A model generated the notes under the pieces. That model was given only the letters and a program-made list of their open reading frames with translations, did no database searches and was not told the DNA's origin. The position numbers were made by a program, and so were the translations under genes. Shown here piece after piece: positions 3,872 to 36,240 of a stretch of 64,000 nucleotides of DNA. The DNA comes from a virus (taxonomy: Duplodnaviria; Caudoviricetes), in IMG/VR virus record IMGVR_UViG_3300035686_000003, positions 32,001 to 96,000 of that record, one strand, 5' to 3'. Numbering within the stretch: the stretch's first letter is position 1; the number at the start of each line of letters is the position of its first letter.

Positions 3872-3898
3872 ACTTTTCTGTAATATCTGTAGAGGAAG

Positions 3899-4466: not shown

Positions 4467-4496
4467 TGCCCTGCAACAGAAAGCTACAGGGCAAAA
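4467..4496. terminator. Intrinsic terminator between convergent genes
   Basis: TGCCCTG...CAGGGCA stem. Confidence 0.5.
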
Positions 4497-4502
4497 GTTT
4501 AT

Positions 4503-4919
4503 CTACTTATCTTTGAGCTGAGGCAGTAGATGAGGGTAATAGGGGTTTAAAGACGCCGTATACCGTTGAATCAGGAATTGTATTGCCTCATCGTCATCCT
4601 TGAGATGGTAGAGGTAAGCAATCGCTTGCAACTGCTTGCGGGTGTTAGACGAAAGTTCCGGTGGTTCCTTCCACCCAGTTTCGCTACGCTCAAACACTAA
4701 CTCGCAAGAGTTAGTGGACGAACGAAGTGAGTTTTGTTTCACTTCAGGGGTGCATTCGCCACGAAGTAACACACGATTGAAGCAACAGTAGAAGTCAATG
4801 AGAAAGACTAGGGTTTCGTAATCATTGGCTTTGTGTTGTGCGAGCGCTATACCTTCGAGTTGTCCCTCGACTTTACCAAGAGCAATATCTCCTGGACATC
4901 GAATAGTTAAGTCAGTCAT
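4503..4919 (-). CDS. Hypothetical regulator with two QLxxIA...LIxxY helical modules
   Basis: Module shared with 5109..5417. Confidence 0.55.
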   Translation of the reverse strand: MTDLTIRCPGDIALGKVEGQLEGIALAQHKANDYETLVFLIDFYCCFNRVLLRGECTPEVKQNSLRSSTNSCELVFERSETGWKEPPELSSNTRKQLQAIAYLYHLKDDDEAIQFLIQRYTASLNPYYPHLLPQLKDK

Positions 4920-16440: not shown

Positions 16441-16442
16441 AG

Positions 16443-16832
16443 TTACACCACGAATGCCGACATGATTGTTGCCTTGCCACCAGTGCCGCACCCACATAAT
16501 TGATTCAATGCTTCACTCGCACTAAAACCTTGAGGCACTATGAGGGGGATACTCAAGTCAATCGCAAGCTGAAGATTAAGCAATGTTTCGATTGGTATAG
16601 CTTGTCCCGTAAAGGTCACGCCATCTTCTGCCTTTGACAGAGCTTGTATTTCTAGGTTTGTTTGTAATCTTCGAGCAGCAACGTAATAGTAGCGGTATAC
16701 GATGGCTCCAGACGGATCTATTCCTGCTGATAATTCAAGTAAGTCGCTAATGAATTCTATGTCTTGCTCAAGCAAAGCGTCTGCAAGCAGCTGGGCTTTA
16801 GCAATTGCTTGAGGCAGTGTGAGCAATGCCAT
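16443..16832 (-). CDS. Putative head-tail adaptor
   Basis: 129-aa helical protein (YRYYYVAARRL, LSKAEDGVTF) at the head of the head operon. Confidence 0.5.
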   Translation of the reverse strand: MALLTLPQAIAKAQLLADALLEQDIEFISDLLELSAGIDPSGAIVYRYYYVAARRLQTNLEIQALSKAEDGVTFTGQAIPIETLLNLQLAIDLSIPLIVPQGFSASEALNQLCGCGTGGKATIMSAFVV

Positions 16833-17912: not shown

Positions 17913-18800
17913 ATGCCTCAACAAGCTATTTGTCTTGATTTGCTCGAATCTACTGGGACTCAGCTTTATGCTGGGTTAGTCCCAGTGGGTTCTTGTACTC
18001 CGACTCCTTATACAGTGGTTCTTGGTGCAGCTGTTGCAGTAGGTGACGAAACCGTTACTGTCACTGCATTGCCAGTTGCAATTCCTAGAGGAAATCGTTT
18101 AGCCTTTTCTACCACTGTAACAATCACCACAAGTGCGTCTGTAACTCAAAACGCTACATCTATTAGTGTTACTGCTTTAGGTTCAGCTGTGCCTTCTGGT
18201 ACCACCCTAAAGTTTGGTAATGTAACCGTTCAAACAACTGCCGCTGCCGCTGCTGGCGCAACAACTCTAGCAATCAATCCTGCACCTGCTGCGATCGCAT
18301 CTGGCGCAACCGCAACGTATCGTCCAAACCCTATTGTTTTAGTTCTAGCTGCTGATGCTGCTGCTGCAACTACCACTCTCTCGATTGATCCGGCTCCTGC
18401 TGCAATTACTAGTGGTCAGACAGCAATTACTTATGCACTCCTTGAATTACTGGGTGGTGAGTCTGCACCGTTCCAAGGTTCCACTGAATTAAACCAGGTT
18501 ACCCTGCTTAACTCTGGTGGTTGGATGTCGAAATCTGCCTCCCAGTCCCAGTACAACTTTCAGTGGACAGGTTACATTCCCGAAAACTCTGCTGCTGCTG
18601 CTGGCTATCGTTTGCTAAAGAATGCTTGGTTTAACAAGCGTTACCTTTATGTCGAGCGCTACATGGCTAATGGCGAGATGTCTGGAGGTACTGTTGTTAT
18701 CACTGCATTTTCTGATCAGGTTCAGGGTGCTGGATATGTACAGTATCAGTGTACGTTTGAAGGTCATGAAGCACCTGTGTACAACTTTGGCGCATCCTAA
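17913..18800 (+). CDS. Major tail (tube) protein with duplicated Ala/Thr-rich inserted beta domains
   Basis: C-terminal tube-like GGW...YNFQWTG...VITAFS...Q.TFEG; repeated AAAGATTLAINPAPAAI units. Confidence 0.75.
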   Translation: MPQQAICLDLLESTGTQLYAGLVPVGSCTPTPYTVVLGAAVAVGDETVTVTALPVAIPRGNRLAFSTTVTITTSASVTQNATSISVTALGSAVPSGTTLKFGNVTVQTTAAAAAGATTLAINPAPAAIASGATATYRPNPIVLVLAADAAAATTTLSIDPAPAAITSGQTAITYALLELLGGESAPFQGSTELNQVTLLNSGGWMSKSASQSQYNFQWTGYIPENSAAAAGYRLLKNAWFNKRYLYVERYMANGEMSGGTVVITAFSDQVQGAGYVQYQCTFEGHEAPVYNFGAS

Positions 18801-20132: not shown

Positions 20133-23100
20133 ATGGCATTGGGTAGTGGCGGCAACTTAGGCACCTTGAGTCTACATATCGAGGCAGACACAAGAGATTT
20201 TGATACCAAAATACTCCAGGTAGAAAAACGTGCTGCCGAAGCTGGTCGCAGAATGTCCAAGTCTTTAGGGGGTGAATTATTCAAGGGGTTGGATAGCCCT
20301 TTGAGTGTGAATGTAGATCATACGTCCTTAAAGGAACTTAACGCTCACCTAGATCTAAAGAGAAAACACTTACATCAGGTCATTGAAGATTTCAAGCGAA
20401 ACCCCATTGTTGCCAAGTATAAAGTTGAAGGAAAAGAGGCTCTTGAAAACTCTAGTGAAACACTCAAGGCTTTAAGCAACAAGCAGGTTGGTGTATCTGT
20501 ACTGGGTACAGGCAAAGCACTAGGGGAGATGGAGGCGATCGCGTCTAAAGACTTAAGTCAGACTGCTCGCATTGATATTGAGATTCATGGTGAAAAAGAT
20601 CTTGACAGAATTTTGCGTAAAATGCAAAGACTTCAAGATAGAAGCATAAGGGTAAATGTTACTAGTGCAAACTATGAAGATATTTCAGCTCCAATAATTA
20701 GTGCTGGAATAAAAAAAACAGGGTTGGTGCCGGACAATTCTCCACAAGAGCGAGCATTACTCAAAGCAATAGAGAAAGTCGGCGGGAAAGAACAAAACGC
20801 TCCATTGTCTGCTGGTGGGCAGGAGATGAAAACTGCCGTTTCTCAAGCACTACGAGAAAATCAGCAAAGCTTTGGATCGCAAGCAGCCGCTACTGTTGTT
20901 AGCACATTGGTTGAACGAACTGTAGGACTCGCTCTGGAAGAAGGATTTTCTAGGGTGATGTTAATTATTTCTAATGTAATTAAAGACAAGCTAAGGTTTT
21001 TAGATTACATTGGACTTAAAGGACTACGACAAGAGCTAGAGAAGACAGTTACTAAAAATTATCGACAAGTAGCTTATACAGAGCAAGGAAGAATTGGCGG
21101 TTTTCGTGGTTTAGCGAGAGATGTTCGCAAAGTTGCTACACTTCCAGCAAAGATGTTGGCAGCACCAGCTTCTCAAGTCATCGGTGGTTTCTATGGTGGC
21201 ATTGGACAGGCATACGCAAGCGCTTTTGCTCGTGGTTCAATGAATAAGTTTCAAGAACGAACCGGAAAGTCAGTCGAAGAGGTTGGTGAAAAAGCTAGCG
21301 GGGGTTTAGCTGGTAGATTTACAGGCACTAATATTGCTGAAGGGTTAGTTTCCAGAGCTGGGACGATCAAGGGAGCGCAAGATTTCATAGAGCCTAGGCT
21401 AAGGACTGCTGCATTGGGGAGAGCGGTTCAGACTGTTGACCCAACTGGTCAAATAGAGAAAGTTCTTCAACCAATACTGAAGAGATATGGTGTCAGGTTA
21501 AACACAGAACCATTACGTAATGCTGATCCTGAGCCAATCACTAATTCTATAAAGAAAATTAGTCAAGCTCTGAAGCAGAACGATATTCAGAGGGATGTTG
21601 CAAACTTTACTCGTTCAATCTTGACGTTGGGCAAGGTAATTAAAACAACTCAACAAAATGTTAACCAGGCAACTACTCCAGAAGAACGCAGTAGTAGGCG
21701 AGGGCAAGCTGATGCAGCTAGAGCTGAGCAGATTGTAGAAATACTAGGAAATCTTGAAACTACCGCTCGCAATGCAACTGAGCCTATTATTAGCAACTAT
21801 AAAAAGGAAGTAGCCGCTGCCGCAAAAGCTTTGGGCGTAGAGCTTTCCAATATAAAAATTGACCCAGACAAACAGTTAGGTCAAGACATAAAAAATGTCG
21901 CAATAGTTTCCGGTGGATTTGCAGGAATGCAAGGGGAAGCTGGGCAAAGGCAGGCACCTATGTATGAACAGATACTAGGTGATGGAACCAAAGTGGTACC
22001 CTTTAATAACGAAGATTTTGATACTTCGGTAAAAGCTCAGGACGATAAGCCTGCTTGGGTTAGAGACATAGCTGGCTTGTTTGCAAGGAATATTAGCAAG
22101 GGCTACAATCCTGCCTCTATAAAAATGGCGCAACAGGCTGCTGAGTATAAGTTGACGAATCCAGCCGTTGATCTTCAACTAATTGGACATTCAGCGGGTG
22201 GGATTATTGTCAAAGAAGCACAGGCAATGCTTAAGGAAATCGGAATAGAAGCAAAAGCTATTGCCTTGGGTAGCCCAAATATAAGAGATGCGGCTTTCAA
22301 TGGGACGGACTCCAATTTTCTGAGTTTCATGGCAGAAAAGGATATGTTAAATCCTCTGTCAGGAGAAACAACTCCTAGAATACCAGGGATTGAGAATCAT
22401 TCTATTGATGAGTACCTATCCAACCAGGCAGTACAAGCAGTTTTAAAAACGGTAAGCAAGGTAGGGATTACGCCTAGGCTTATTGAAATTTTAAACAAAA
22501 CTGGTACAGAGTTTTCAGACTTAACTACGCTAACTCAAGCTTTAGAGGATCACCTTCGAGAATTCACAGGGTCGTTAGATAACGCTACTCAAGAAGTTGC
22601 AAATCAAAACATTGCTCCGTTACAGACTCCTGAAACAGATCCTAAACAGGCAGCGCTAAAAGCTAGGGTATTACTTTTAGCAAGAAAGTCCCAACAAATA
22701 ATTCCAAATTTCAACCCTGCTAATTATGGTAACGCTGCTAGTGCTGCTAGTACTAATAGACAACAGGCTTTACAAGCACTAGAATCCGTGAAAGGATTTG
22801 ATTTTAATCAGCAACTTTCAACTCAAACCTCTAATGAACTCAGGAAAGCAATTAGAAATCTTCAAAGTTTTCTCAAGAGAGCTGGACAAGAAGATAATAA
22901 CAATAGCATCACTGAGCTTGAGCAACTACCGCTTGATGAGTTAAGTACACTGATAGAAACAAACGTGGCAGCAGTTAATTCTATTGCTGCCAATTACCAG
23001 TCGTCTGCACAACAAATAGACGACTTAAAGGCTAGGCTGGGGAGCTTGACCGTCAAAGATTTAAGAGAGATTGGAGGAAAAGCAAACATTCCCAACCTGA

Positions 23101-26100
23101 GTCAGTTAAACAAAGATCCTTTAATCAATAAGTTAACTGAACCCCAGAATGCGTTTAATGTTGCAAAATTTGCTTCGGAAAAAGAACTCTTAAAGTCAAT
23201 ACGAAACGCAGAAAAAAAAGCAACTCAAGCTTTGCAGACGGCTCAAAAATTAAGTGGCGACGAAAAACTTAAGCTTCTTGCAGAGATTAGACAGTCTATT
23301 GAAGCTCAAATTCGCAACATAGACGCTAACTCTGAAAGGGTAACTGATTCAGGGTATAGGCAACGACTAGGAGCTACCAAAGGCAGGCTTGGGCAAAGCT
23401 ATCGTAGAACATTTGATGTTTCTTCGGTAGAAATAGATACAACTAGGCAAAGTCTACAAAATGCTATAGATCAGGGTGGTGCTACTCCTGGTTTATCAGC
23501 TGCTTATACAACACCACCAAAGAATTTTCAACGTTTGGTTGCTAATGCGGCTCAAGCAGCAGGGGTAGAGCTTAACGAGAAGAATCAACCGGAGCTAGTT
23601 GAAGATGACATAAAACTTTTAGCTTTAGGCTCGAAAGCTTTTTATGACTTTACAAAGAACCAAGTAATTGTATCGCGTAGGACAGCCCAAGCACTTAAAT
23701 CATCTGTTACTGACCTTCATAAATATGAAGAAGAACTTGGCGAGGCTATCCATGAAATACAACACGCAGCTGATCTAGGGTTTAGCAAGTTAGATCCCAC
23801 CAACTTTGGTTCTCAAATCATTGAAAAGTCAGCTAATATTCCTACCATTGAAGACTCTCAATTAACCAAAAAATTACTCAAACAAGTAGAGGGGTCTGTA
23901 TCTAATTACAAGATGCTACGACCTAATGCATCGCCTGCCGAACTTGCTGCGGTGCGAAAACTGGAGATGCACGCTTCATACCAACAAAAGAATGCACCTC
24001 AGTATATCAATCAGCTAAAAGATAAGTATGGACAAACGAAAACATCAAGAACTGAATTAGAGGGTATAAAGAAAAATCCTTTTGAGAATATCAGCAAGCA
24101 ATTTGAGAACTTTGTTAACACCATAAAAAAGGTATTGCGATCACTGTTTGCTGCTTTCGAGAATACATCTAGAGGACTTGCAATAGCTGATTCTTTTGCA
24201 ACGCTAAGCAACGTATTTGAAAATTTCAACAAGCAGATGTTGCGCTATGGAGAAGAACTGCAAGAGGTCTTTAATAATATTAGTCTTGCTTTTGACTTTG
24301 TTATTGGGATGTTCATGGAGAAAAATGCTCATGTTGATAAGCTAGTTCAAAAAGCAGAAAGATTTTATGTTAATTTCCAAAGAACCAAGAAAGGAGTTGC
24401 CGATCCCTCAGAAGGTTTGCCCTCTGGGGTAAAAGTAACAGAAAACAACCTCGTTTCCAAGAACAGAAGTTACAGTTTTCAAAGCAAAAGTGGCAAAGAA
24501 GTTGGGGTTTATTTTTCGCACAAGAAAAATATGTCCGATGTTCACTTTGACATTGACAAAAGTATGTCAACCAAAGTCAATGACATGAGCCAAAAGGAAA
24601 AAGATGCAATTGCTTTGAAAGTCTTGAAGATAATGAAGCATGATGCAAAAAGTAGAAAAGAGGGCTATCGTTACAAAACCTCAGCTTACACAGGAGATGA
24701 TTATGGAGCAGTTCGATCTGAAGCCTATGAGCAAATTGCTGGATTTAGTCGTCCTGTTGCAGGTAAGGTAGGAGGCTACCAGTTTGCCGTTGTTCAAGGA
24801 GGAAAGTTAACTCCTGACAATAAAAAATTAGAGCAGCAGGAATACATCCACGATCATTCACCTGATGATGTATCCCAAAATCTAGCTCAATTCAAAGAGC
24901 TTCTTGCAATTCAAAGACAAGCAGCAAAAGCAGCGGCAGCAAACAATCGTGCTAACAAGGGTTTGTCAGTTGCTAACGGCAGAGGCTTAGATGAAGCCTA
25001 CGAAAACTTTGAGAAGTTTGTAAATAAAGTTAATGATAAAGCAGAAGAGTTAATCAAAGCAACGTTTACGCCTGAACTAAAGCAACGAAGGGTAATAGAA
25101 TCAGCCGAAGCAATCAAGAGTTCTGCTCCTACAGGTAAAGCTGCTATGCCTGCCGCTGATAAAGAATTTTCAACTTATTTATCGGCAGGGTTTTCTGGTA
25201 TGCAAGGGTTCAACCCTCAAGTATATGAGAAAATGGCAGGAGTTTTGGGCGAAAAACACAATTTTGTACCCATTACAAATGAAGAGTACGACACTGATGC
25301 AACAGTGTTTGATGACTTGCCTGTTTTTCTAAAATCAGCACTTGAGAGAATTACTGCTGGCGGAATGAAGGGTATAAACCCAGCAGCCGCTAAGATGGCG
25401 CAAAGAGCCTATGAAGACTATCAACTTGACCCTTCAAAGAAAATCAGATTTGCTGGATATTCAGCAGGGGCACACGTAGCTTCTGATGCTTTAGAAATAT
25501 TTAAGCAGCTAGCACCTAACGCTGACGCTAGGGCTGTTGGTATTGGTGGGGCACCCTTTGATCAAAGGCGATCAACACTTCGACCAGAGCAATATGTCAA
25601 TATGTTGCGAAAGGATGACTTGCTCCTTCGTGCATTTGCTGGTGCCTTTAAGATGAATGGTGCCAACCAAAGGATTATTGAGCCGAGTGTTAATAAAGGG
25701 GCGATAAAAGCATTAGATGCTCACTTCATAGAAGGTTATGCCGATGATCAGAATACGGCAAGAGAACTAAAGTATCTTATCGAGGCATCTGAATCTGAGA
25801 TACAAGCATTTCTGAGTTCCGTAGCAGATAGCTCAAGTGTCCTTTCGGTTTTTGCAGACAACGCTGGAGCTTACAAAGGTACTGCTGAAGAAATAATAAA
25901 ACAGCTCGATAATCTTGCATCAGCATTAGAACAGAAGACGGCTCAAATTCAACCACGAATGCAACAACGTGGACAAGCGAGTTTGAATTCTGTAATGCAA
26001 TCTGGAATGGGTGCTTTTAACAACACCTTATCTAATGCTCAAGGACTGAGGCAGACGCCAGCACAAATGCAGCGTTTGATGGCTGAAGCACGAAAGCGAG

Positions 26101-29100
26101 CAATGCAATCAGCAGCGGCTACAGGTATTAGAGAAGGTCAGGGTATCCTTAATTCGGGAATTAATAAGACTTCAAGCTTAGCTGAGACATTTAGACAGCC
26201 TGGTGTAAAAGTCATTCAAGCATATGGAGAAGATCGAAAGGCGCAAGTGAGAGCTTCGTCAGCTCAAGCCATTGCAAGTGTAGCGAATGCGACAGAGGCA
26301 GTTTCTAACAGTATCAGTGAAGCGGCAAGAGTCTTAGCTGAAAAAGCTCAAAACACAAACAACGATGCATTAAAACTTCTTTACAACGAACTTTCCCTAA
26401 ATACTCCGGTGCTTGAAGCGATCGCACAGCGTACTGGACAAAAGGTAGAGACAATCATTCAGAACATTGCATCTGAAGCAGAAAACTCTATTAACGAAAA
26501 AACCCAACAACTTTCAAGTGGTTACCAAGGAGGGATCGATGCAGTTCAAGAAGGAGGTGAGCAAGCTAAAGGGTTTGTAAATGTTGTTGCAGGATTAAGT
26601 CAACGAGCAACTACAGATCCCATAGGAGCTTTCAATGAAGCTAAAGCGTTGTTAGCGGGAAAAATTCTAGATGATCTTAAAGCTAGATTCCCTATTTTTG
26701 GTGAGATTCAACGACGCTTTGGGATGATAACAGGGGCTGCAAGTGCTTTGGTAGGAGCTTTTGTGGGGTTTGCTGTTTTGAAAGGTGTGATGCTGTTCTT
26801 TGAGAAGATAGGGTTTGCGGCTATTGAAGTAGCAACTCGCTTTGAAAACTTAGAGCGCATCATTCGATTTACAAGTGGCAGTGCAACAGAAGCAGCACAA
26901 AATATTTCCTTTGTTCAAGGACTGTCAGACAAGTTTGCCTTGAATCCCGAAAAGGCAATGAGTGGATTTGCTCAGATGTCAGCGGCTGCACTCGAAACGC
27001 CTTTGCAAGGTGAAGGTGTTAAGAAGATTCAAAGCAGTATTTCTCAGGCATCAGCAGTCTATGGTTTAGCTCCAGAATCTCAAGAGCGAGTTTTTGTTGC
27101 ATTGAACCAGATGATTTCAAAGGGCACCGTAAGTTCAGAAGAACTTCGTCAACAACTCGGTGAATCGTTGCCTGGTGCCTTAAATATTGCAGCTCGAAGC
27201 ATGGGGGTTACAACCTCTGAATTCAACAAAATGTTAGAGCAAGGACAAGTTCTTTCAGAAGATTTCTTGCCTAAATTTGCAGCACAACTAGCGGCTGAAA
27301 CAGAAGGAGGCGTTGCTGGAGCAGCTACTAGCGCCCAAGCAAAAATTAATCGATTTAATAACGCAATCCTTACATCTCAAAACATTCTTGGTAAAGGTTT
27401 GATGCCTGTTAAGAATTTTGGCTTAGATGTTCTTACAGGTTTGTTGACAGGATTAACAAAAATCTTGCCAGTTGTTGCTCATCTCATGGGAAGCCTACTG
27501 TTCGCTTCTGTTTTGCAGCTGGGTAAATCATTCTATATGCTAGCAGCAAATCCGATGGTGAGAGGCGCAGTCTGGGGAGGACTCAAAGGGGCTATTGGTG
27601 GTCTGATAACTATCATTAAATCGCTTTCTGGTTACATTTCACAATTCGCAAAAGCTTTCCTCGTATTTACAGCAATTACCGAAGGCTACAAGATGTTCAA
27701 AGCTGCCACAGCAGACGGTGGTGGCGAAAGTAGAACTTATGCTGACAAACTGACAGAAGGGCTTGGCAAGTATCGTAAAGCTTTGGCTGATGCTCGTGGT
27801 GAGACTGAGGCACTTAAGAAATCTACAAGACCAGAGACGCTTCTAGATGCTACTTTCCTAGGCAACTTGATGCCGAAAGAAATAGAGGAAAATGATTCCC
27901 TAGCAAAGAAAGCTGGGTATTATGCAGGCAAGTTTACCTCAACTGGTTTACTCAACGAAGACCAGATTGAAGGGATGAGCAAAAATGCATTAGGTCGCAC
28001 TGCTCTCCAATGGGGACTCGGAGGTATTACAGGTGCCCAAAAGGGATTCGGTTTAGCAACCTTTGAAGAGAAGAAGTTTGCTGACCAACAAGTAGCAACA
28101 GGCGACATCAGAAGTGCAGCCAACGAAACTACTTCACAGATAATTTCTGCTATACCAGGCAAAGAACTAGCAGCATTGAAGGAGTATGACCGTAAGCTTC
28201 GAGACATCCAGATCAAGCGTCGTGGTATCAGTGAGACACAACCCCAGAACAAAGAGGCATTGAGGAAGCTCAAGGAGGAAGAAGCACAAATCCTCAAGAA
28301 CAGGGATGCTGCACAGAAACCTATCAGTGCATTACAAGCTCAAGCCCAAAGCTCGGTAGATGCATTAAAGGCTGAGGTGGAAAAGTATGAGAAGCTCGCC
28401 CTTGAACCCGGAAAGAATCAAGCCTACTACAAAGAAACACTCGCAGGACTCAAAGGTGACCTTGAAGCTGCATACAAGTTCCAAGATAAGCTAAATCAAT
28501 CAGTTGGTGAAGCTGTCAATGCATTTATCCTGTTACAACGACAGTTACAAAATGTAGCCGACCGTTTAGCTGATGCGAATGATCGTATTCAGATGATTGC
28601 TAACAGTGCAAAAGCTGACTTATTCGGAAGGACTGATTTAACTCCAGGTCAAAGGGAAGCGGGACAACAAGAGATTGAACAAGCTGCATTGGGTGAGCAG
28701 ATTAAGCAACGTCAAAGTGCAATTCAGCAATATCAGGTTCTCCTGGAAGATGCTGATAGCCAAAAGATCCTTGAAGCTCGTGGAATAACCAATGTTGATG
28801 CGATAGGTCAAGCTGAGTTAGGAACACTTGCAGGTAAAGCAAAGGATGGCACCCAGGAGAAAGAAGTTCTCACAAGGTTACAGGACGTTAAGCGACTCAA
28901 GCTCGAAACCCAAGATCTGACAGCTCAACTAGCTCAATCTCAAGCGGCAACTCGCGACAGAATCTATGATGCTAACAAACAAATTATTGATTACTTCAGA
29001 GAAGTATCCAGACAGTCTGCTGAGCTAGCTTTGTCAACGAAGGAAGCTGGGGCACAAATCGCAATGCAAGAGCAGAAGAATAAGCTCAAGTCAGCACTGC

Positions 29101-32100
29101 AAGGCTTCCAAGACAATTTCTTCAGCTCGTTCGTAGATTCTCTTATTGAAGGCGTAGATTCTCTCAATGAGCCAATAGCAGCAGCCATCGAAAGAGAAAG
29201 AGAAGTCCAGTCAGCCAAATTTGCTAAAGATGACCGTGATCGTCAAGCCTATGAGTTACAAAGGTCACTACCGTTAGCTGGTGCCGAAGTAAAGCTAGAC
29301 TTTGGTGCATTAGATTCAGCTCCCGTCAAAGAACTAGAGAAGACCCTCCAAAAGTCAGCAGAAGCTAGCAAACAAGTTACAGCAGCATCAAAAGAAACTG
29401 GTGCGGCGATCGCTGACTCGTCAAAGCAAGCTGGGAACCTGAATACTAATGTAACCAAAGTTGCCGAAGACACGAAAGAGACTAAAGCAGCAACTGACAA
29501 CGTAACGACTGCACTAAAGGAGAACGTTGAAGCTGCTCAAAAAGTTGGTGGACAGGTTTACCTCAACACTCAGGAAGTCGATGCAAACACTTTGGCTATC
29601 GGTGGCACCAATGACGCCCTTGGGAACCAGAGTGATGCTCTTGCTGGCTTAGGTGGGCAGTTGCTTGAGCAAGGGGGTTTGATTGATGGGATTAATAGCA
29701 TCTGGAACACTGTTAGTGGAACCATTGCTGGAGCAGCTGCTAGGACTTGGGATTGGTTTAAGGGATTGGTTGCAAACACTCCCATCCTAAGTGGAATCAT
29801 GGAAACTCTTGACGGTTGGGCTAAAAGCATTCAGAATGCAATTGCTAAAGCTTGGGAATTCTTCAAAGGATTAGCTGATAACGTTCCATTCTTGCGTTCC
29901 ATTGCTGATGCAGTAGGAGCCATTGGTTCAGGTATTGGTGGGGCTGTTCAAAATGGAATGCAAGCGATTGGTATTGGCAGGGAACAAATAAATACTGGGA
30001 AGGGTGTAGGTGTCGTTGGAAAATATACCATCGTGGAGAGTGTTGGTGGTGCTATCCAAAACGTCAATACCTTTAGAGATTTAGAAAAACATCATCCCTC
30101 TAGAGGTCGAGAAGCAGGTAGAAGCTACGGTCATGTTGATGGAGAATTTGAAGAAATTAGAAATACTAGAGATGGACGCACTCTAGTTAAAAAAGATTTC
30201 GTTCTGTCAAAAAATGGAAATCAAAATGTAGATATCCCAGCGATGGCTTCTGGTTTCGTCAAAGTGCTAGGTGATGCCACCAACACTGTCCAGATCTATG
30301 CCGATAAAGAAATGACAAAACTTCTTGGGCAGTCATTGCACCAAAGAAGTGTAGCAGTAAAAACAGGACAATTTGTTAACTACGGGCAATCGCTGGGTAT
30401 TCAAGGAGATAGGGGTTCGCCAGGTGCAATTCATGCACACATTGAACTAGAGAAAAGTAGATTTGAACAATACATCAAAGATCTCAAAGATGGAACCTTC
30501 GAGGGTGTAAATGGTGGTGTTAGCACAGCATTAGATGGTGCTGGCGGATCAGTAGTGAAGCTTGGACAAACAATGGTTCAAGAATTAGCTCACTACCCTG
30601 GAGATGGACACAATCATGGTGGCTTTGACGGCAAACAATCTCAGGCTGAACGCTCAAATCTTCAAGGTGCTGGAAACATCCTTCGTGGTGGGAATTTCAA
30701 TCCCTTTGCTGGTGGATCTAATTCATTTGCAGCAAGAGTAGTCGGTCATAGCGAAGGCAACCGAACGGCAACTGGCGGTTTCAACCGTGGCTACAGGGGT
30801 CATGGTGACCCTGGCAATGGTCAAAGAAATGTCGGTTCGTTCAGTGTGCAAACGGGAACTCATGGAAATATGAGTGCTGAACAAGCCGATGTGTATTGGC
30901 AAAAGAAACTGGCGGCAGTGTTGCCACAATTCCAAACAGCAGCAAGAGGTGCTGGATTAGACCCAAACAATCCTAAGCTTCTGGCAAACTTCCTTGACCT
31001 CCACACTCAGTCGCCAGCTGCTGCTACTGATAAAGGGCATCGTAATTTCCTAAGTCAGCTACCTGCGATCGCTAAAGCGGGTATGAGCGATGAGTCGATA
31101 TTACAAGCTCGGATGTCAGGCTACTATCGCAACAATGGTCGTGCTAACTTCCCTGGCTTTGGCAATGACCCCAACCGTCTGCGTCGTGACCAGATGCGGC
31201 GTATGGCGGCACTGCAAGCGGCTCTACCAGGTGCAATACAAGCTACAGGGGCACCAGCAGGTTCTAGTGGAGTAGTTGCTTCAGGAGCGGCTCCAGCGGC
31301 ACAACAGAACTTACCTGTGTTAGCTCCAGTACCTTTTGCTTCCATGAGTAGCACAAGTGTCGATACGGCACCACTGTCTGCTGCTCAAGCGGAAAGTGAA
31401 AGAATTCGTCGTGAACAAGAACGTCAAGCCATTGCCAAGGAACGTGCAAGAAACGAGGAAGCTCGTGTTCAAGGTGAGCAAAGGCAGCGTCAGCGACTAG
31501 AGCAACTACGGCAAAGCATCCGTGATACGGAAGGCGATCGCATCCAAACGAATCGTCAATTCACGAACCTGGGACTAGACGCACAAATCCAAACACCAGA
31601 CGTTGAGTCAAGTAGAAAGATACTTGGTGTCAACGAGACTTATGATGACTTAGAGCGTGACATTGCTGAGAAGGTTCGCAAGGCAACAGCTGGTCGTGAC
31701 CAAGCTAGGGCGACTTTACAAAAATTAAGTTCTCCCGACTACGTTCCTCAACCAGGACAAGATGTTGGACGTGACATCGAAGCAACACGTACAGCTATTA
31801 CCCAGGCTGAGAAGTATTTGGGTGACCTTACGAGAATTCAAGGTGAACTGAAAGGTCAGCGTCAGGAAAGAATTCGCTTTGAGGAGGAACAGGCTGCTCG
31901 TGAGAAGAAACTTCGTGAACAGCAAGAACGATTTGCCACTGAAGAAATCAGTATCTCAGTTCTAGAAGCTGAAGCTCAACGACTCAAAGATTTGCGAGGG
32001 AGGGGCGTCCGTGACCAAGGTACAGAAAACCTTCCGAAGCTTGAGGCAACGATTGCTGCTCGTCGCGAAGAACTACAGCTGCAACAGAAGCTATCAGAGA

Positions 32101-34370
32101 TTGACGAGAACGCTCGAAAGAATGGGACTGATCCGAAGGTCGTTGCTGAACAGAAAGCTGGTCTACAAGATAGGCTGAAGATTGTTCGCCAAACCATTGA
32201 GGCGAACAGAGAATACGCTGAGACAGTAGAAGGTAGAGAGAACAGCAAGCGAGCTAGAGAACAATCCATCGAATTGTCTCGTGGTGAACTGGCTGTAATG
32301 AAACAGCAGCTAGAGGCAGCGGAAGCGATTGCTCAAGTAAACCCGTTGGCACCTGAAGCCTTGGGTATCCCTGAGATGCAGAAGGCGATCGCTCTCAAGG
32401 AAGCTGAGTTAACTCTCACTGAACAGATTGCTGGCATTGAGGACAAGAGATTCACCAACGACATGACCGATGAGGCGGCAGACAAGAGGATAGCCGACTT
32501 AAGGAAAGAGAACGAGCAACTAGTAGAAAACATCAACAAACGTGCCGAACGTGCAACCAAAGAGCAAGAGTTCGCCCGTCGCAGAGCAGCACTCGACAAC
32601 CGTAACCAAGACGTTGAGCTGAAGGGTTCAGTGACGGAAGCTCTCGCAAGGAACATTGAGTTGGGACGCTCCACAGGTGAACCTATCGCAATGAGATTCG
32701 AGCAGCAGCGATCGCAACAACAGCTCAGCTTTGATAGGCAGATGCTCGACTTAGATGAGCTTGAGGCTAGCGGGAAGCGCACCAAGGAAGAGATTGCGGC
32801 GTTACGAGCTGAATATACTCGACTCAATGAAGTGAGTCTGGACAACCTTAAGGCAGAGCAACAACGTGCGACTGAAGACCGGATCATGGAAATCTCTGGT
32901 CGTATGACTTCTTCACGAGTAGGAGTCCTCAATGGTCGTGCCGATCTTCTGAGTTCGATGGGCTTAGATACTCAAAGTAAAAGTTATAGACGGCAAGCAG
33001 CCATTAGTGACCAACAGCAAAACTATAGCCAACAGTCGCTTGAGCTAGAGCGGTTTATAGCGCAACAGCAGCTGAGTAACGAGCAAGCACTGGAGTTGAG
33101 GACTTCGTTGTCAGAGGTTAATAACATGAGCATGGAGAAAATCAACAATGAGTTCTCCACTTGGAACGAATTAATGGTTGGCGTCCAAGGTTCGTTTGAG
33201 TCGGCTTTTACTTCAATCCTTGACGGGAGCAAAACAATTGGGGAAGCCGCAATGGACTTCCTGAAAGGGATTGGAAGCCAGTTGGCGTCAATGGCTAGTA
33301 AGATGCTTGTTGATAAGTTATTTGGTGGTTTGTTCGGCAAAGGTAACGAAGATCAAGAAGCTAAAAAAGCTGGATTAATTTCCCAAGGCGGAATCATTGG
33401 CGAAATGACAGGTGGGAATCCTTTGGCTCAATACTCTGCCTTAAATCCCTTGCCAGTGAGCTTGGTTAACACCAGTGCTTTAGCAGGACTAGGAGGATTT
33501 GGTGGAGGTGGTGCAAACCTATTTCAAAAGTCTTCTGGAGGTGGCATTTTTGATGTGTTCAAAGGTAGCGGAAGTTTGTTTGGTAGTGCAAATCAATTCC
33601 AAAATCCTGTTGCGGTAAACATGGTGGGAGCTAGCAATAACGTTTTTGAGCCTATTACTAAAGGTATTGGAGGTGTGTTCAGTAGCCTGATGGGTGGAGG
33701 TGCTGGTGGAGGACTTGGCGGAATTGTCGGAAGCTTACTCGGTGGCTTAGGCGGAGGGGGAGCTGCTGGTGGTGGAATGGGCGGAGGCTTTGGTTCTCTG
33801 ATAAGCACTGGACTCAGCTTGGTGTCAAGTATCTTCGGGTTCCATAATGGAGGGATTGTAGGAGATGCTGCTCATGTGCAAGCGTACGCTAGTGGAGGCG
33901 TTGTAAGTGGTTGTGGTTGCCGTGCTTGTAGCTTCGCTCAAGGGGGGACGGTCGGCAGTGGAATAGAAGAAAGTTTGGAAGCTGCGATGAAACGAGAACG
34001 CTCAATGAATGGGGGAAAACGGGCTAGGGTGATTATTGCCACTGACGGAGAGTTAATTGTTCCAAACAAAATAGTCAACAGACTTAATGATCGTCAAAAA
34101 GCTTTTCTTATTGGAAAATCATCTGCCCCTTCTGCCTCTATGATGAATTATGCCACTGGAGGAATAGTAGGCTCACAGATGGGTTCTTCCATTGCAAATA
34201 ATGTTACGAACATGGGTGGAAGCACCAAGATTGAAGGCAGCACAGTAAATGTTGGCGAAGGCGGCAACATGAGCCGTTCAGAAGCTGCACAACTGAAGCA
34301 AATGATTGATGCGTCAGTCATGCAGACAATCTCGAAACAGACCCGTCCTAGAGGTTTGCTTTCAAGGTAA
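20133..34370 (+). CDS. Giant multidomain tape measure protein (4745 aa)
   Basis: N-terminal LGTLSLHIEADT; tape domain QMISKGTVSSEELRQQLGE; two GxSxG hydrolases, HEIQH, M23-like HAHIE, long coiled coils, C-terminal FHNGG/YASGG/DGELIVP. Confidence 0.9.
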   Translation: MALGSGGNLGTLSLHIEADTRDFDTKILQVEKRAAEAGRRMSKSLGGELFKGLDSPLSVNVDHTSLKELNAHLDLKRKHLHQVIEDFKRNPIVAKYKVEGKEALENSSETLKALSNKQVGVSVLGTGKALGEMEAIASKDLSQTARIDIEIHGEKDLDRILRKMQRLQDRSIRVNVTSANYEDISAPIISAGIKKTGLVPDNSPQERALLKAIEKVGGKEQNAPLSAGGQEMKTAVSQALRENQQSFGSQAAATVVSTLVERTVGLALEEGFSRVMLIISNVIKDKLRFLDYIGLKGLRQELEKTVTKNYRQVAYTEQGRIGGFRGLARDVRKVATLPAKMLAAPASQVIGGFYGGIGQAYASAFARGSMNKFQERTGKSVEEVGEKASGGLAGRFTGTNIAEGLVSRAGTIKGAQDFIEPRLRTAALGRAVQTVDPTGQIEKVLQPILKRYGVRLNTEPLRNADPEPITNSIKKISQALKQNDIQRDVANFTRSILTLGKVIKTTQQNVNQATTPEERSSRRGQADAARAEQIVEILGNLETTARNATEPIISNYKKEVAAAAKALGVELSNIKIDPDKQLGQDIKNVAIVSGGFAGMQGEAGQRQAPMYEQILGDGTKVVPFNNEDFDTSVKAQDDKPAWVRDIAGLFARNISKGYNPASIKMAQQAAEYKLTNPAVDLQLIGHSAGGIIVKEAQAMLKEIGIEAKAIALGSPNIRDAAFNGTDSNFLSFMAEKDMLNPLSGETTPRIPGIENHSIDEYLSNQAVQAVLKTVSKVGITPRLIEILNKTGTEFSDLTTLTQALEDHLREFTGSLDNATQEVANQNIAPLQTPETDPKQAALKARVLLLARKSQQIIPNFNPANYGNAASAASTNRQQALQALESVKGFDFNQQLSTQTSNELRKAIRNLQSFLKRAGQEDNNNSITELEQLPLDELSTLIETNVAAVNSIAANYQSSAQQIDDLKARLGSLTVKDLREIGGKANIPNLSQLNKDPLINKLTEPQNAFNVAKFASEKELLKSIRNAEKKATQALQTAQKLSGDEKLKLLAEIRQSIEAQIRNIDANSERVTDSGYRQRLGATKGRLGQSYRRTFDVSSVEIDTTRQSLQNAIDQGGATPGLSAAYTTPPKNFQRLVANAAQAAGVELNEKNQPELVEDDIKLLALGSKAFYDFTKNQVIVSRRTAQALKSSVTDLHKYEEELGEAIHEIQHAADLGFSKLDPTNFGSQIIEKSANIPTIEDSQLTKKLLKQVEGSVSNYKMLRPNASPAELAAVRKLEMHASYQQKNAPQYINQLKDKYGQTKTSRTELEGIKKNPFENISKQFENFVNTIKKVLRSLFAAFENTSRGLAIADSFATLSNVFENFNKQMLRYGEELQEVFNNISLAFDFVIGMFMEKNAHVDKLVQKAERFYVNFQRTKKGVADPSEGLPSGVKVTENNLVSKNRSYSFQSKSGKEVGVYFSHKKNMSDVHFDIDKSMSTKVNDMSQKEKDAIALKVLKIMKHDAKSRKEGYRYKTSAYTGDDYGAVRSEAYEQIAGFSRPVAGKVGGYQFAVVQGGKLTPDNKKLEQQEYIHDHSPDDVSQNLAQFKELLAIQRQAAKAAAANNRANKGLSVANGRGLDEAYENFEKFVNKVNDKAEELIKATFTPELKQRRVIESAEAIKSSAPTGKAAMPAADKEFSTYLSAGFSGMQGFNPQVYEKMAGVLGEKHNFVPITNEEYDTDATVFDDLPVFLKSALERITAGGMKGINPAAAKMAQRAYEDYQLDPSKKIRFAGYSAGAHVASDALEIFKQLAPNADARAVGIGGAPFDQRRSTLRPEQYVNMLRKDDLLLRAFAGAFKMNGANQRIIEPSVNKGAIKALDAHFIEGYADDQNTARELKYLIEASESEIQAFLSSVADSSSVLSVFADNAGAYKGTAEEIIKQLDNLASALEQKTAQIQPRMQQRGQASLNSVMQSGMGAFNNTLSNAQGLRQTPAQMQRLMAEARKRAMQSAAATGIREGQGILNSGINKTSSLAETFRQPGVKVIQAYGEDRKAQVRASSAQAIASVANATEAVSNSISEAARVLAEKAQNTNNDALKLLYNELSLNTPVLEAIAQRTGQKVETIIQNIASEAENSINEKTQQLSSGYQGGIDAVQEGGEQAKGFVNVVAGLSQRATTDPIGAFNEAKALLAGKILDDLKARFPIFGEIQRRFGMITGAASALVGAFVGFAVLKGVMLFFEKIGFAAIEVATRFENLERIIRFTSGSATEAAQNISFVQGLSDKFALNPEKAMSGFAQMSAAALETPLQGEGVKKIQSSISQASAVYGLAPESQERVFVALNQMISKGTVSSEELRQQLGESLPGALNIAARSMGVTTSEFNKMLEQGQVLSEDFLPKFAAQLAAETEGGVAGAATSAQAKINRFNNAILTSQNILGKGLMPVKNFGLDVLTGLLTGLTKILPVVAHLMGSLLFASVLQLGKSFYMLAANPMVRGAVWGGLKGAIGGLITIIKSLSGYISQFAKAFLVFTAITEGYKMFKAATADGGGESRTYADKLTEGLGKYRKALADARGETEALKKSTRPETLLDATFLGNLMPKEIEENDSLAKKAGYYAGKFTSTGLLNEDQIEGMSKNALGRTALQWGLGGITGAQKGFGLATFEEKKFADQQVATGDIRSAANETTSQIISAIPGKELAALKEYDRKLRDIQIKRRGISETQPQNKEALRKLKEEEAQILKNRDAAQKPISALQAQAQSSVDALKAEVEKYEKLALEPGKNQAYYKETLAGLKGDLEAAYKFQDKLNQSVGEAVNAFILLQRQLQNVADRLADANDRIQMIANSAKADLFGRTDLTPGQREAGQQEIEQAALGEQIKQRQSAIQQYQVLLEDADSQKILEARGITNVDAIGQAELGTLAGKAKDGTQEKEVLTRLQDVKRLKLETQDLTAQLAQSQAATRDRIYDANKQIIDYFREVSRQSAELALSTKEAGAQIAMQEQKNKLKSALQGFQDNFFSSFVDSLIEGVDSLNEPIAAAIEREREVQSAKFAKDDRDRQAYELQRSLPLAGAEVKLDFGALDSAPVKELEKTLQKSAEASKQVTAASKETGAAIADSSKQAGNLNTNVTKVAEDTKETKAATDNVTTALKENVEAAQKVGGQVYLNTQEVDANTLAIGGTNDALGNQSDALAGLGGQLLEQGGLIDGINSIWNTVSGTIAGAAARTWDWFKGLVANTPILSGIMETLDGWAKSIQNAIAKAWEFFKGLADNVPFLRSIADAVGAIGSGIGGAVQNGMQAIGIGREQINTGKGVGVVGKYTIVESVGGAIQNVNTFRDLEKHHPSRGREAGRSYGHVDGEFEEIRNTRDGRTLVKKDFVLSKNGNQNVDIPAMASGFVKVLGDATNTVQIYADKEMTKLLGQSLHQRSVAVKTGQFVNYGQSLGIQGDRGSPGAIHAHIELEKSRFEQYIKDLKDGTFEGVNGGVSTALDGAGGSVVKLGQTMVQELAHYPGDGHNHGGFDGKQSQAERSNLQGAGNILRGGNFNPFAGGSNSFAARVVGHSEGNRTATGGFNRGYRGHGDPGNGQRNVGSFSVQTGTHGNMSAEQADVYWQKKLAAVLPQFQTAARGAGLDPNNPKLLANFLDLHTQSPAAATDKGHRNFLSQLPAIAKAGMSDESILQARMSGYYRNNGRANFPGFGNDPNRLRRDQMRRMAALQAALPGAIQATGAPAGSSGVVASGAAPAAQQNLPVLAPVPFASMSSTSVDTAPLSAAQAESERIRREQERQAIAKERARNEEARVQGEQRQRQRLEQLRQSIRDTEGDRIQTNRQFTNLGLDAQIQTPDVESSRKILGVNETYDDLERDIAEKVRKATAGRDQARATLQKLSSPDYVPQPGQDVGRDIEATRTAITQAEKYLGDLTRIQGELKGQRQERIRFEEEQAAREKKLREQQERFATEEISISVLEAEAQRLKDLRGRGVRDQGTENLPKLEATIAARREELQLQQKLSEIDENARKNGTDPKVVAEQKAGLQDRLKIVRQTIEANREYAETVEGRENSKRAREQSIELSRGELAVMKQQLEAAEAIAQVNPLAPEALGIPEMQKAIALKEAELTLTEQIAGIEDKRFTNDMTDEAADKRIADLRKENEQLVENINKRAERATKEQEFARRRAALDNRNQDVELKGSVTEALARNIELGRSTGEPIAMRFEQQRSQQQLSFDRQMLDLDELEASGKRTKEEIAALRAEYTRLNEVSLDNLKAEQQRATEDRIMEISGRMTSSRVGVLNGRADLLSSMGLDTQSKSYRRQAAISDQQQNYSQQSLELERFIAQQQLSNEQALELRTSLSEVNNMSMEKINNEFSTWNELMVGVQGSFESAFTSILDGSKTIGEAAMDFLKGIGSQLASMASKMLVDKLFGGLFGKGNEDQEAKKAGLISQGGIIGEMTGGNPLAQYSALNPLPVSLVNTSALAGLGGFGGGGANLFQKSSGGGIFDVFKGSGSLFGSANQFQNPVAVNMVGASNNVFEPITKGIGGVFSSLMGGGAGGGLGGIVGSLLGGLGGGGAAGGGMGGGFGSLISTGLSLVSSIFGFHNGGIVGDAAHVQAYASGGVVSGCGCRACSFAQGGTVGSGIEESLEAAMKRERSMNGGKRARVIIATDGELIVPNKIVNRLNDRQKAFLIGKSSAPSASMMNYATGGIVGSQMGSSIANNVTNMGGSTKIEGSTVNVGEGGNMSRSEAAQLKQMIDASVMQTISKQTRPRGLLSR

Positions 34371-34402
34371 GCGTTTAGTCAATCTTCGTTAGGCTGTCAA
34401 TA

Positions 34403-34780
34403 ATGACGTAAATTGATTTATTGTGTGATGCGGGTGGGGCGAAACTCTTCCAACACCACGATAGTTTTTGTGAAGACCGGATCAAATTGGACTAGTCTCC
34501 ATTTGTTATGACAAGATCAAATTGATCTAGTGACCGGATCAAATTGATCCACTCCTCTTATATATAAAGAGACTAAGAAAAGACTAACTATCTCGCAAGC
34601 GGGTTAGGTAGCTAGTTTTGAGGTCACAAGAGAGTATCGTAGAAGCAGAGATCTCGGTTGCTCACGCTAAGAATCGAAGACCCTCCAAGAACAAACCTTG
34701 TCGTACTCAATGAAATTCAAGATCAAGAACCCTCGCACGAAATACCGTTACAACTCCGGAGGAAGAGTTTCGCCCCTGCC
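34403..34780. repeat. Non-coding degenerate copy of the iteron/linker part of 51560..52927, bounded by a 16-bp inverted repeat
   Basis: ACCGGATCAAATTG at 34476 and 34533 (variant at 34511); GGGGCGAAACTCTTCC 34436-34451 and GGAAGAGTTTCGCCCC 34761-34776. Confidence 0.8.
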
Positions 34781-34960
34781 ATGCCGCAAAAAAAGTCTTT
34801 AAGCCGCCCAAAACCAACCGAACGTCCAAAGACACTACTCTAACTCACAACAGCTGCTACAGCCGTCACCATTGACCGCTAAGGATAACTCTTGCGTACA
34901 ATCACATATTGTTGGACTACCAAAGCTTGCGACCATGAGGTAGTACTTTAGCCTTGTGTT

Positions 34961-35455
34961 ATGACCGTAGCTCCATCTAACCCCTCTGAAATCAAAGGTA
35001 GTGGAATCCTTGGTGGTGGTGGATGCTTCGTTGCGGACACCCTGATTTGGACTGAGGACGGAACCAAGCCGATCCGTGACATTCGTGAAGGCGATCGCGT
35101 CTTATGCTTCGACAGTCACCGAAAGCTGCACTTTAGCGAAGTAATTGCAACATCGTTCCATTGCAACTATGACGTGTGGCGCTATAGGTTCTGGGGTGGT
35201 GAGTTCATTGCGACTCCCAACCACTATGTTTATACCGAGCAGAATGCATTCCAAGAGATCGGGAAGCTTGAGAGAGACGCACCCCTCTACAACTCCTCTT
35301 GGCAAGTGCTACCTCTTGAGTCATCGGTTTACATTGGCAAGGCTAATGTTTACAACTTCTGGGTGGCAGGTTATCACACATACTTTGTTACAGAGTCAGC
35401 GATAGCCGTCCACAACGGCAAACACAAAAAAGGAGCTTATCTTTTGCAAGAATAA
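34961..35455 (+). CDS. Orphan Hint (BIL/intein-like) protein, a truncated duplicate of the tail-tip J 5' end
   Basis: GSGILGGGG|CFVADT...ATPNH...VYNFWV..YHTY...VHN|G; Hint domain 35024-35416. Confidence 0.8.
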   Translation: MTVAPSNPSEIKGSGILGGGGCFVADTLIWTEDGTKPIRDIREGDRVLCFDSHRKLHFSEVIATSFHCNYDVWRYRFWGGEFIATPNHYVYTEQNAFQEIGKLERDAPLYNSSWQVLPLESSVYIGKANVYNFWVAGYHTYFVTESAIAVHNGKHKKGAYLLQE

Positions 35456-35460
35456 ACTCC
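35426..35460 (-). terminator. Intrinsic terminator of the antisense HNH gene
   Basis: GGAGCTTATCTT/AAGAATAAACTCC stem with a U-tract on the minus strand. Confidence 0.55.
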
Positions 35461-35472
35461 CTTTAAAACCGA

Positions 35473-36207
35473 TTAGTAATCTTTGCCTTTGATTTGCCCT
35501 CCAATCTCTCTGTAAGCTTGCCCTTTGGTTATTCGTTCTATTGTCGATATTCCTAATTCATACTTTGACGCTATTTTTGCTAAAGAATCACCTACAAAAC
35601 GGAGGTTTCTTATGTCCAAAACGTCTGAAGGTTCAAGAAGACGTGTCGTTGTCGCCTTTTTGAGAAGTTCATAATCCTTTCCTTTAACAAGTCCACCTAT
35701 ATGCTTCTACTTGTTTCCAAGCACAATGTTGCCTACTATAGTGTGTCCAAGTCCATATTCTTTGGCTAAAGTCTCAAAAGATATGTTTTCGTAGGCATAC
35801 CTCGTTCTAATTTCAATTACAATGTTTTCGTTGATCTTAGCACTGCCTGTTCCTTTTCCTTTCGATTGCCGATCTGCTTCAACCTTATCAATGACGTTTT
35901 CTGCTTGAGAGCCTAAAACTAAATGCTGTGGGTTACAACACTGTGGGTTGTGGCACATATGCCTTACTATCTTTTCAGAAGGTATTTCTTGTTTGTTATA
36001 AACCTGCCACATCAATCGATGAAGTCGTACACATCGACCTATCCCCTTGAGGTCAACAACTCCGTACCCGTGGTTTCTGTGACCGTTCCAGTTCCAGCAT
36101 CCAGATGAAGAAACGCTAATGTTTGATTCTATTTTCACCTGCTGATCAGGAGTTAACTCAGTCGGCAATTTCATAAATTTTATATTCTTCATGACTCTTC
36201 CTCTCAT
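35473..36207 (-). pseudogene. HNH endonuclease with two C-terminal HTH repeats, interrupted by an in-frame TAG at 35709-35707
   Basis: GCWNW...GYG...HR...VRHMCHNPQCCNPQHL..G...N; after the TAG the frame continues KHIGGLVKGKDY...ITKGQAYREIGGQIKGKDY to TAA 35475-35473. Confidence 0.75.
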
Positions 36208-36240
36208 GTGTCCCCAACAGGTTAACAGTTAGAAAACGAA

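Follow-up and report, generated by a model that had tools for sequence, protein, structure and literature searches.

Tape measure proteins (TMPs) are the textbook rulers of phage tails, and a few of them carry a wall hydrolase as well. For T5 and lambda it is established that the TMP is expelled with its C-terminus first; T5 pb2 reportedly bears a C-terminal M23-type motif, and the TMP of mycobacteriophage TM4 is said to bear Rpf/peptidase motifs. As for the so-called polyvalent proteins, Iyer et al. 2017 report that GNAT, lysozyme and peptidase domains occur in them, propose a zincin-like processing, and name as phage vehicles MuF and portal fusions, which are head-associated (PMC5512222), while making no mention of tape measure proteins, lipases or M23. 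Herein we analyse a window, namely the whole stretch of 64,000 nucleotides that covers bases 32001-96000 of the 147,706-bp IMG/VR virus record IMGVR_UViG_3300035686_000003 (rated complete by CheckV), and in particular one gene in it, which encodes a TMP of 4745 residues, hereafter P0001. Our results make it fairly probable that P0001 is a polyvalent effector array fused to the TMP chassis of a siphovirus-like phage of ~148 kb, most likely a cyanobacterial one. P0001 fits the definition of a polyvalent protein, with disparate domains in one polypeptide, a virion module and a zincin-like domain. Wall hydrolases on TMPs have precedents, and so do polyvalent proteins in virions; what appears new is an array of lipase-like, zincin-like and GNAT-fold modules fused to a TMP, of which no description was found in the literature on TMPs.

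P0001 is a genuine tape measure protein. The Pfam family TMP_3 (PF20155) matches aa 2230-2412 (nt 26820-27368) with E 4.6e-24 and 85.7 bits (cut-off 41), TIGR02675 reaches 64.7 bits (cut-off 21.35), and three PHROG tape-measure families match too, with E 3e-32 and 2e-29 among their scores. TMP_3 is matched only once in the whole 147.7-kb genome, and this single copy lies in the tail module, between a major-tail-like open reading frame (ORF) at 17913-18800 and a gpJ-like ORF at 36241-38976. The gene itself is one ORF of 4745 codons without internal stop at 20133-34370 on the plus strand and takes up 9.6% of the genome; a frame open over 14.2 kb is impossible as a product of chance. The single uninterrupted frame reported by the first-pass annotation, a reading of the letters alone, is confirmed in this way, and since TMP_3 starts at aa 2230, so are the ~2200 aa that it had placed before the tape-measure core. 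The motifs it had picked out also lie where it put them, namely GHSAGG at 22185, HSIDEY at 22398, HEIQH at 23751, RSEAYEQIAGF at 24714, GYSAGA at 25455, HFIEGY at 25722, HAHIE at 30432, VVGHSEGNRT at 30738 and CGCRAC at 33912. An assembly chimera is ruled out, as the architecture is shared by two close relatives, 5054 and 4721 aa long, that come from other contigs. A shorter TMP produced from an internal promoter or terminator was rejected as well, the count of such sites being 20, below the shuffle expectation of 24. By megablast, the first 9 kb have no match among 50,697 phage records. The features concerned, all on the plus strand, are as follows.

20133..34370, +: the whole gene of the tape measure protein P0001, from the ORF list and its translation
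20133..21839, +: N-terminal region, aa 1-569, helical and charged, with no known domain
21855..22532, +: hydrolase domain 1, aa 575-800, lipase class 3/cutinase-like by profile matches, with Ser687, Asp737 and His756
23004..23144, +: candidate HeH/Rho_N-like helix-extension-helix, aa 958-1004, by weak profile matches
23520..24032, +: zincin-like module, aa 1130-1300, by motif and conservation, with HEIQH at 1207-1211 and Glu1278 as candidate third ligand
24420..24827, +: GNAT-fold domain, aa ~1430-1565, by AlphaFold2 model
25125..25802, +: second hydrolase domain, aa 1665-1890, paralogous to the first, with Ser1777, Asp1830 and His1864
26718..27524, +: TMP core (TMP_3) with flanking hydrophobic segments, aa 2196-2231 and 2431-2464, by profiles and a Kyte-Doolittle scan
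30090..30512, +: M23-like peptidase, aa 3320-3460, by homology to PDB 8kea_A, with HHPSRG, KKDF, SLH and HAHIE
30690..31250, +: lysozyme-fold domain, aa ~3520-3706, by predicted fold, with the invariant Glu3541 in SEGNRT

The two hydrolase domains each present a G-x-S-x-G elbow with Ser, Asp and His in order (GHSAGG/Asp737/His756 and GYSAGA/Asp1830/His1864). In an alignment of ten excised domains of the family the Ser of GxSxG is invariant, and the Asp and the His are present in all untruncated copies. Judged by their sequences the two domains are paralogues, with 34% identity over 125 aa (E 2e-19) in a direct pairwise comparison, which revealed a relationship that self-BLAST at E 1e-3 had overlooked. 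Domain 1 matches Pfam Lipase_3 (PF01764) with E 6e-4 and 20.1 bits, below the cut-off of 22, so that membership of Lipase_3 itself is not established for the copy in the window; five of the ten family members match Lipase_3 (best E 1.2e-5), three match Cutinase (PF01083), others match Thioesterase, PGAP1 or Abhydrolase families, and a precomputed PF01764 match exists for P0002, the close relative of 5054 aa. When the family profile is compared with the PDB, 3ngm, a class-3 lipase (E 5.7e-4), and 4psc, a CE5 esterase (E 2e-3), come first, and many further lipases and thioesterases follow, all aligned at the nucleophile elbow. Membership in the alpha/beta-hydrolase superfamily is well supported by these profiles, and the first-pass call of two alpha/beta-hydrolases with apparent full triads is borne out by the conserved Ser-Asp-His and the lipase/cutinase matches. 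The single hydrolase domain has no relative found in IMG/VR, and a word search for its shorter homologues found none.

P0001 is not a singular oddity: it is a member of a sizeable, mostly metagenomic family, with an architecture that is rare in isolates. A word-indexed search retrieved two full-length relatives, P0002, which shares 60% identity over the first 1640 aa and has the region 3261-3728 replaced, and P0003 (4721 aa), which has the same modules in another order. With aa 560-1640 as query, an exhaustive phmmer search of 1.84 billion representatives yielded 231 matches, and the segments of P0001 were mapped onto the best 150 of them, with clusters taken at 50% identity. Among these best 150 the hydrolase domain occurs in 91 clusters; in at least 48 clusters, metagenomic or prophage and some of them cyanobacterial, it shares one polypeptide with the TMP core, and those without the core (91 minus 48) are mostly apparent contig fragments. 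Tandem or triple copies of the hydrolase are common among the related TMPs, and 11 related giant TMPs, that of the Oculatella prophage among them, have N-termini homologous to the first 569 aa. The usual order is the N-terminal region, one to three copies of the hydrolase, a short conserved linker, the zincin and the TMP core, followed by a hydrophobic segment, a coiled coil, an optional M23 or lysozyme-fold domain, another coiled coil and the C-terminus. Moreover, modules are shuffled, duplicated or swapped between relatives of similar total length, and such shuffling across at least 48 clusters fits the expectation for a cargo array. The earlier remark that tandem lipase-like domains are unusual in a TMP consequently stands for cultured phages, where one of the 50,697 records, that of Aphanizomenon phage vB_AphaS-CL131 (CL131), has the hydrolase domain and has it in separate ORFs, but not for metagenomes, where the at least 48 clusters often carry it in tandem.

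Oculatella sp. LEGE 06141 and a cyanobacterial metagenome-assembled genome each supply a named member of the family, in both cases a TMP; in addition, 4 of 401 sampled cyanobacterial genomes have the hydrolase, always within an open frame of 1647-2683 aa. On the basis of the named relatives the host is probably a cyanobacterium, likely a filamentous one, the genome sampling having been cyanobacterial only. The thick envelope that the first-pass annotation saw as the target of the enzymes would depend on this presumed host.

The zincin-like module is assigned by its motif and its conservation as the sole basis. HExxH is found in 23 of 24 aligned copies (P0001 and 23 related proteins), the exception being a degenerate second copy in one protein, and a conserved E-x-D-A motif ~70 residues downstream offers a third ligand. 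Searches of this region against Pfam and PDB sequences gave no assignment up to E 10, and the nearest zincin profile match, a weak one, is DUF6782 'putative metallopeptidase' with the Oculatella copy (E 0.028). The zincin-like HEIQH recognised at first sight agrees with this conservation. In most relatives the zincin is the last module before the TMP core, whereas P0001 and P0002 have the GNAT-fold domain and the second hydrolase inserted between the two. Upstream of it a HeH/Rho_N module may be present in P0001, as a weak call: the match that had been noticed is seen against Pfam Rho_N (E 0.006, 16.9 bits), yet it lies below the threshold of 24.9, and phrog_2724 is matched with E 4.6e-4. Among the best 150 of the 231 matches this candidate is kept in P0002 only.

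The segment at aa ~1430-1565, formerly described as GNAT-like, is supported by modelling as having the GNAT superfamily fold, in a family without a Pfam name. The AlphaFold2 model from a 44-sequence alignment has a pLDDT of 90.2, the top matches by Foldseek against the PDB are all GNAT acetyltransferases (E 5e-3 and above), and in BFVD 12 phage proteins match the model at E 1e-3 or better, many of them large uncharacterised multidomain proteins. The domain profile has no sequence match in Pfam or the PDB. Its homologues form 61 clusters; for the most part they stand alone, as proteins of 150-350 aa that bear a leader rich in Gly and Arg. The acetyl-CoA motif A (R/Q-x-x-G-x-G/A, beta4-alpha3) is absent in the 44-sequence alignment, where the beta4-alpha3 loop is variable and the conserved residues lie elsewhere (F73, D105, R109, D123, R129, Y133 and GF138-139); as motif A is unrecognisable, acetyl transfer by this domain stays putative. 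Two stand-alone genes of the family in IMG/VR show where it may be placed, one (L041, 6572-7399) between the portal and head-protease genes and the other (L042, 6911-7501) adjoining a terminase and an Alt-like ADP-ribosyltransferase (ART) virion protein, and both are places where packaged or injected proteins are typically encoded. The pairing of ART and GNAT seen at L042 is described for polyvalent proteins in PMC5512222.

The one cultured phage with this hydrolase provides a comparison with the virion. In CL131 (MG209611, 9791-22651) three copies of the domain are distributed over ORF047 and ORF048, and the TMP gene ORF049 follows directly downstream; ORF048 (1811 aa) is annotated 'hypothetical', and the TMP has 2131 aa. 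Both ORF047 and ORF048 were left as hypothetical proteins by the authors (PMC6293099), who detected all three products in CsCl-purified virions by tandem mass spectrometry coupled to liquid chromatography (LC-MS/MS), with 105 peptides and 54.6% coverage for ORF048 (PMC6293099 Table S5), and gave a tail length of 361 nm (PMC6293099). If only the residues of ORF049 are counted, this length comes to 0.17 nm per residue; with all three proteins it comes to 0.085. From the virion LC-MS/MS and the fit of the tail length it follows that the CL131 array is virion-borne and without effect on the length of the tail. ORF047 overlaps the start of ORF048 by 4 nt, and a gap of 41 nt separates ORF048 from ORF049, which lie in different frames, so that ORF047-049 may be truly separate proteins or may be joined by frameshifting, either being possible.

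Downstream of the core, two domains are likely to act on the cell wall. The M23-like peptidase proposed earlier proves homologous (E 8e-10) to residues 735-897 of 8kea_A, the hub gp15 of Anabaena myophage A-1(L), whose peptidase domain lyses Anabaena cells in vitro and loses the activity in point mutants (PMC10966104). Weak PDB matches to TagE and ShyA fall at the HxH region, and HAH (3434-3436) and His3403 are conserved in the family alignment. In its closest short homologues, P0157 and P0158 (47% identity), the domain is joined to PG_binding_1 and to an X-Tfes XVIPCD domain, XVIPCD being the C-terminal signal of bacteria-killing T4SS effectors. The muramidase-like domain that had been suspected next to it is predicted to have a lysozyme fold: the model is globular and confident and places a putative catalytic Glu where the N-terminal helix ends, and homologues are fused to PG-binding, VanY and M23 domains. 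By this model the region at aa ~3520-3706 would belong to the lysozyme-like superfamily, outside the named glycoside hydrolase (GH) families. Neither the domain nor the matching region of its homologues has a Pfam match, and a 24-sequence profile has no match in the PDB; GH24, GH104 and GH46 were rejected as family names for want of profile membership, and an Atlas lead to VgrG3_C/GH46 reached only 0.90. The family, with the motif AEGTR..GH.DPGN..N.G.FS.Q, is found in 20 of the 401 sampled cyanobacterial genomes (~5%), as chromosomal ORFs of ~240-700 aa and in some genomes in several copies (L011-L040).

What we infer about enzyme activities and substrates, ejection and injection, self-processing by the zincin, a ruler confined to the C-terminal half, and the host may be put together as follows. 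P0001 would consist of a cargo half (aa 1-2195) with two Ser-Asp-His hydrolases, the HExxH zincin, the GNAT-fold domain and possibly a nucleic-acid-binding HeH motif, and of a ruler/channel half (aa ~2196-4745) with the core, the two hydrophobic segments, ~2000 aa of helical charged sequence and the conserved C-terminus. After receptor binding the TMP would be expelled C-terminus first, upon which the M23-type endopeptidase and the lysozyme-fold glycosidase embedded in the ruler half would open the cell wall, while the hydrophobic segments and the helical part form a conduit. The N-terminal cargo, carried in the virion, would be released into the envelope or the cell just ahead of the DNA; there the hydrolases may attack ester-linked envelope lipids, the zincin may process the polyprotein and free the modules, and the GNAT-fold domain may modify a host target. 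The length of the tail would be set by the C-terminal half only, at ~320-380 nm as opposed to ~710 nm; for this metagenomic phage, known from its sequence alone, the calculated values are 712 nm for the full chain and ~320-382 nm for the ~2550 aa that follow the cargo, here termed post-core. The idea of an injected toolkit for crossing the envelope, put forward in the first-pass annotation, is plausible in the light of our analysis, and it has indirect support in the homologous array of CL131, which is a virion component by LC-MS/MS.

Several points weigh against this scheme. The activity, the processing and the localisation of P0001 in the virion are deduced, and the hydrolase and zincin folds are read from sequence patterns; the Lipase_3 and M23 copies in the window are below the Pfam gathering thresholds, M23 (PF01551) with 22.1 bits against a cut-off of 28.7, and the canonical HxxxD is not evident in the linear M23 alignment, where the conserved HH farther upstream (3320-3321) and Asp3355 are candidates. 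The CL131 TMP has no homology to the TMP core of P0001 at E 1e-4, and with cores not detectably homologous the analogy in tail length is an indirect one. Furthermore, the N-terminus of a TMP is head-proximal and exits last, so that a role in penetrating the envelope is less obvious than for C-terminal lytic domains. Finally, folded domains of ~4 nm from three chains cannot sit side by side in a lumen of ~4 nm; by our own arithmetic a trimer of the full chain fills ~40% of a lumen of 4 nm x 360 nm, and the stored cargo may possibly be staggered, partly unfolded or near the neck.

Other explanations have to be set beside the polyvalent array. The whole chain of 4745 residues might be extended in the tube as the ruler of a tail of ~700 nm, its domains being degenerate, unfolded relics without enzymatic role, as would accord with the scaling of TMP length with tail length that is generally known from lambda-like phages (~0.15 nm per residue) and with the helix-favouring composition along the entire chain. 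We hold this to be very improbable: distant relatives keep the catalytic Ser, Asp and His, the HExxH, the HxH and the Glu of the lysozyme-fold domain, which speaks for selection on activity, the GNAT-fold and lysozyme-fold domains have confident globular models, relatives of similar total length have shuffled or duplicated modules, and the tail length of CL131 fits its TMP without the hydrolase protein. It is also conceivable, if improbable, that the N-terminal array is an appendage of the assembly or lysis phase which is not injected, being cleaved off by the zincin or acting outside or at lysis, so that the virion keeps the C-terminal ~2550 aa. TMPs of the lambda gpH type are generally known to be proteolytically processed during assembly, the zincin stands just upstream of the core in most relatives, and the problem of packing the lumen would vanish; zincin processing has indeed been proposed for polyvalent proteins (PMC5512222). 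In CL131, however, ORF047 and ORF048 are abundant in CsCl-purified virions, and P0001 and P0002 have the GNAT-fold domain and the second hydrolase between zincin and core.

The remaining alternative concerns the hydrolases only, which might be carbohydrate or peptidoglycan esterases (O-acetyl esterases of the CE5/cutinase type) that strip esters from sheath, exopolysaccharide or murein, instead of attacking envelope lipids. The second-best PDB match of the family profile is the CE5 carbohydrate esterase already mentioned, and Cutinase is matched by three of the ten members; Lipase_3 is nevertheless the commonest and best Pfam match, with five of the ten, and class-3 lipases dominate the PDB list. 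Hence we judge the esterases to be rather unlikely, and the substrate is not decidable from sequence.

Beyond the polyvalent array itself, a broader reading can be offered tentatively, at somewhat less than even chances, in which the TMP is a dedicated effector-delivery chassis of long-tailed cyanophages with exchangeable N-terminal cargo arrays that are injected ahead of the DNA. The cargo, namely lipase-like hydrolases, a self-processing zincin and a new family of GNAT-fold effectors, would be stored in or behind the tail tube, and would breach membranes and reprogramme or disarm the host. If so, there would be a siphovirus counterpart of the MuF-linked polyvalent proteins and of the cargo loading of T6SS/eCIS, with a tail measured by part of the TMP only. 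If the polyvalent array is real, there would be a recurring family of TMPs of ~0.5 MDa in which one half is a shuffled array of lipase-like, protease-like and acetyltransferase-fold domains, and the idea of polyvalent proteins would reach the tail lumen; it would pose a packing problem of ~240 kDa of globular cargo per chain in a 4-nm tube and break the simple rule that length equals ruler. In addition two domain families without names would become accessible, the lysozyme-fold wall hydrolase seen in sampled cyanobacterial genomes and the GNAT-fold domain common in phage virion-gene neighbourhoods. With CL131 in culture, and with its proteomics and electron microscopy, these questions are directly testable, and the lytic domains may interest groups working on bloom-forming filamentous cyanobacteria.

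As for the neighbouring genes of the same genome, the portal protein (14458-16497, minus strand; Phage_portal_3, E 2.4e-39) has a C-terminal InPase domain (PF18823, E 4.3e-11), and PMC5512222 describes such a fusion and classes InPase as a polyvalent-protein domain that is probably injected. The InPase domain on the portal suggests a more general use of virion proteins by this phage to carry enzymes. Downstream of the TMP, the interval 34371-38976 has no Dit- or Tal-like ORFs and begins with a gap of ~590 nt without a listed ORF (of at least 80 aa); next come a 164-aa ORF taken up almost wholly by a Hint/PT-HINT domain (34961-35455), an HNH endonuclease in antisense orientation (35707-36207) and the gpJ-like protein (36241-38976), which starts with a second Hint domain of ~150 aa. 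Further on, a DnaE-type Pol III alpha of 1471 aa (40236-44651, minus strand) has an N-terminal extension of ~300 aa including a match to phrog_2072, a family of unknown function (aa 164-284). Within the TMP gene itself, two features near the C-terminus are to be added.

33390..34367, +: Gly-rich region and C-terminal ~150 aa, aa 4420-4745, kept in 7 related TMPs
33912..33929, +: CGCRAC, the sole three cysteines among 4745 residues, within a 16-aa insert

This 16-aa insert (GG..GCGC.AC..A.GG) is found in P0001, P0002 and P0016 only, that is in three of eight aligned relatives, which are otherwise nearly free of Cys. CGCRAC could possibly bind a metal or an Fe-S cluster, in a site shared between the subunits of the TMP oligomer at the tip of the tail.

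With T5 pb2 and the TM4 TMP, as these are reported, P0001 has in common the TMP core, the hydrophobic segments and peptidoglycan hydrolases downstream of the core that are presumed to be active on expulsion. It differs in being two to four times longer and in having two wall hydrolases, which are of divergent and partly unnamed families, and chiefly in its N-terminal extension of 2200 aa with enzymes not directed at murein (two lipase-like domains, a zincin-like one and a GNAT fold). With polyvalent proteins (PMC5512222) it shares the many disparate enzyme domains in a giant polypeptide tied to a virion module, whereas here the vehicle is a TMP and the dominant cargo is an array of alpha/beta-hydrolases.

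In CL131 the same hydrolase domain is present in multiple copies upstream of the TMP core, just as in P0001, but there the array is split into separate ORFs in a reading frame that the TMP gene does not share, and CL131 has another type of TMP. The baseplate hub gp15 of A-1(L) (PDB 8KEA) likewise joins a homologous M23-like domain with a lysozyme-type domain in a protein of the tail tip or tail lumen, the carrier being the hub of a myovirus there and the TMP of a siphovirus here; the lysozyme and endoglucanase domains of gp15 have no sequence match to the lysozyme-fold domain of P0001, 8kea having matched the M23 part only and the domain profile no PDB chain. In concept only, P0001 would also resemble Afp18 of the Serratia Afp particle, in that a narrow tube, or the space behind it, would store a large cargo with enzymatic domains until firing delivers it. 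Afp18, however, is a separate cargo loaded via an N-terminal signal in a contractile system (10.1101/2023.11.13.566157), whereas in P0001 a covalent link joins the cargo to the ruler, and the tail is non-contractile.

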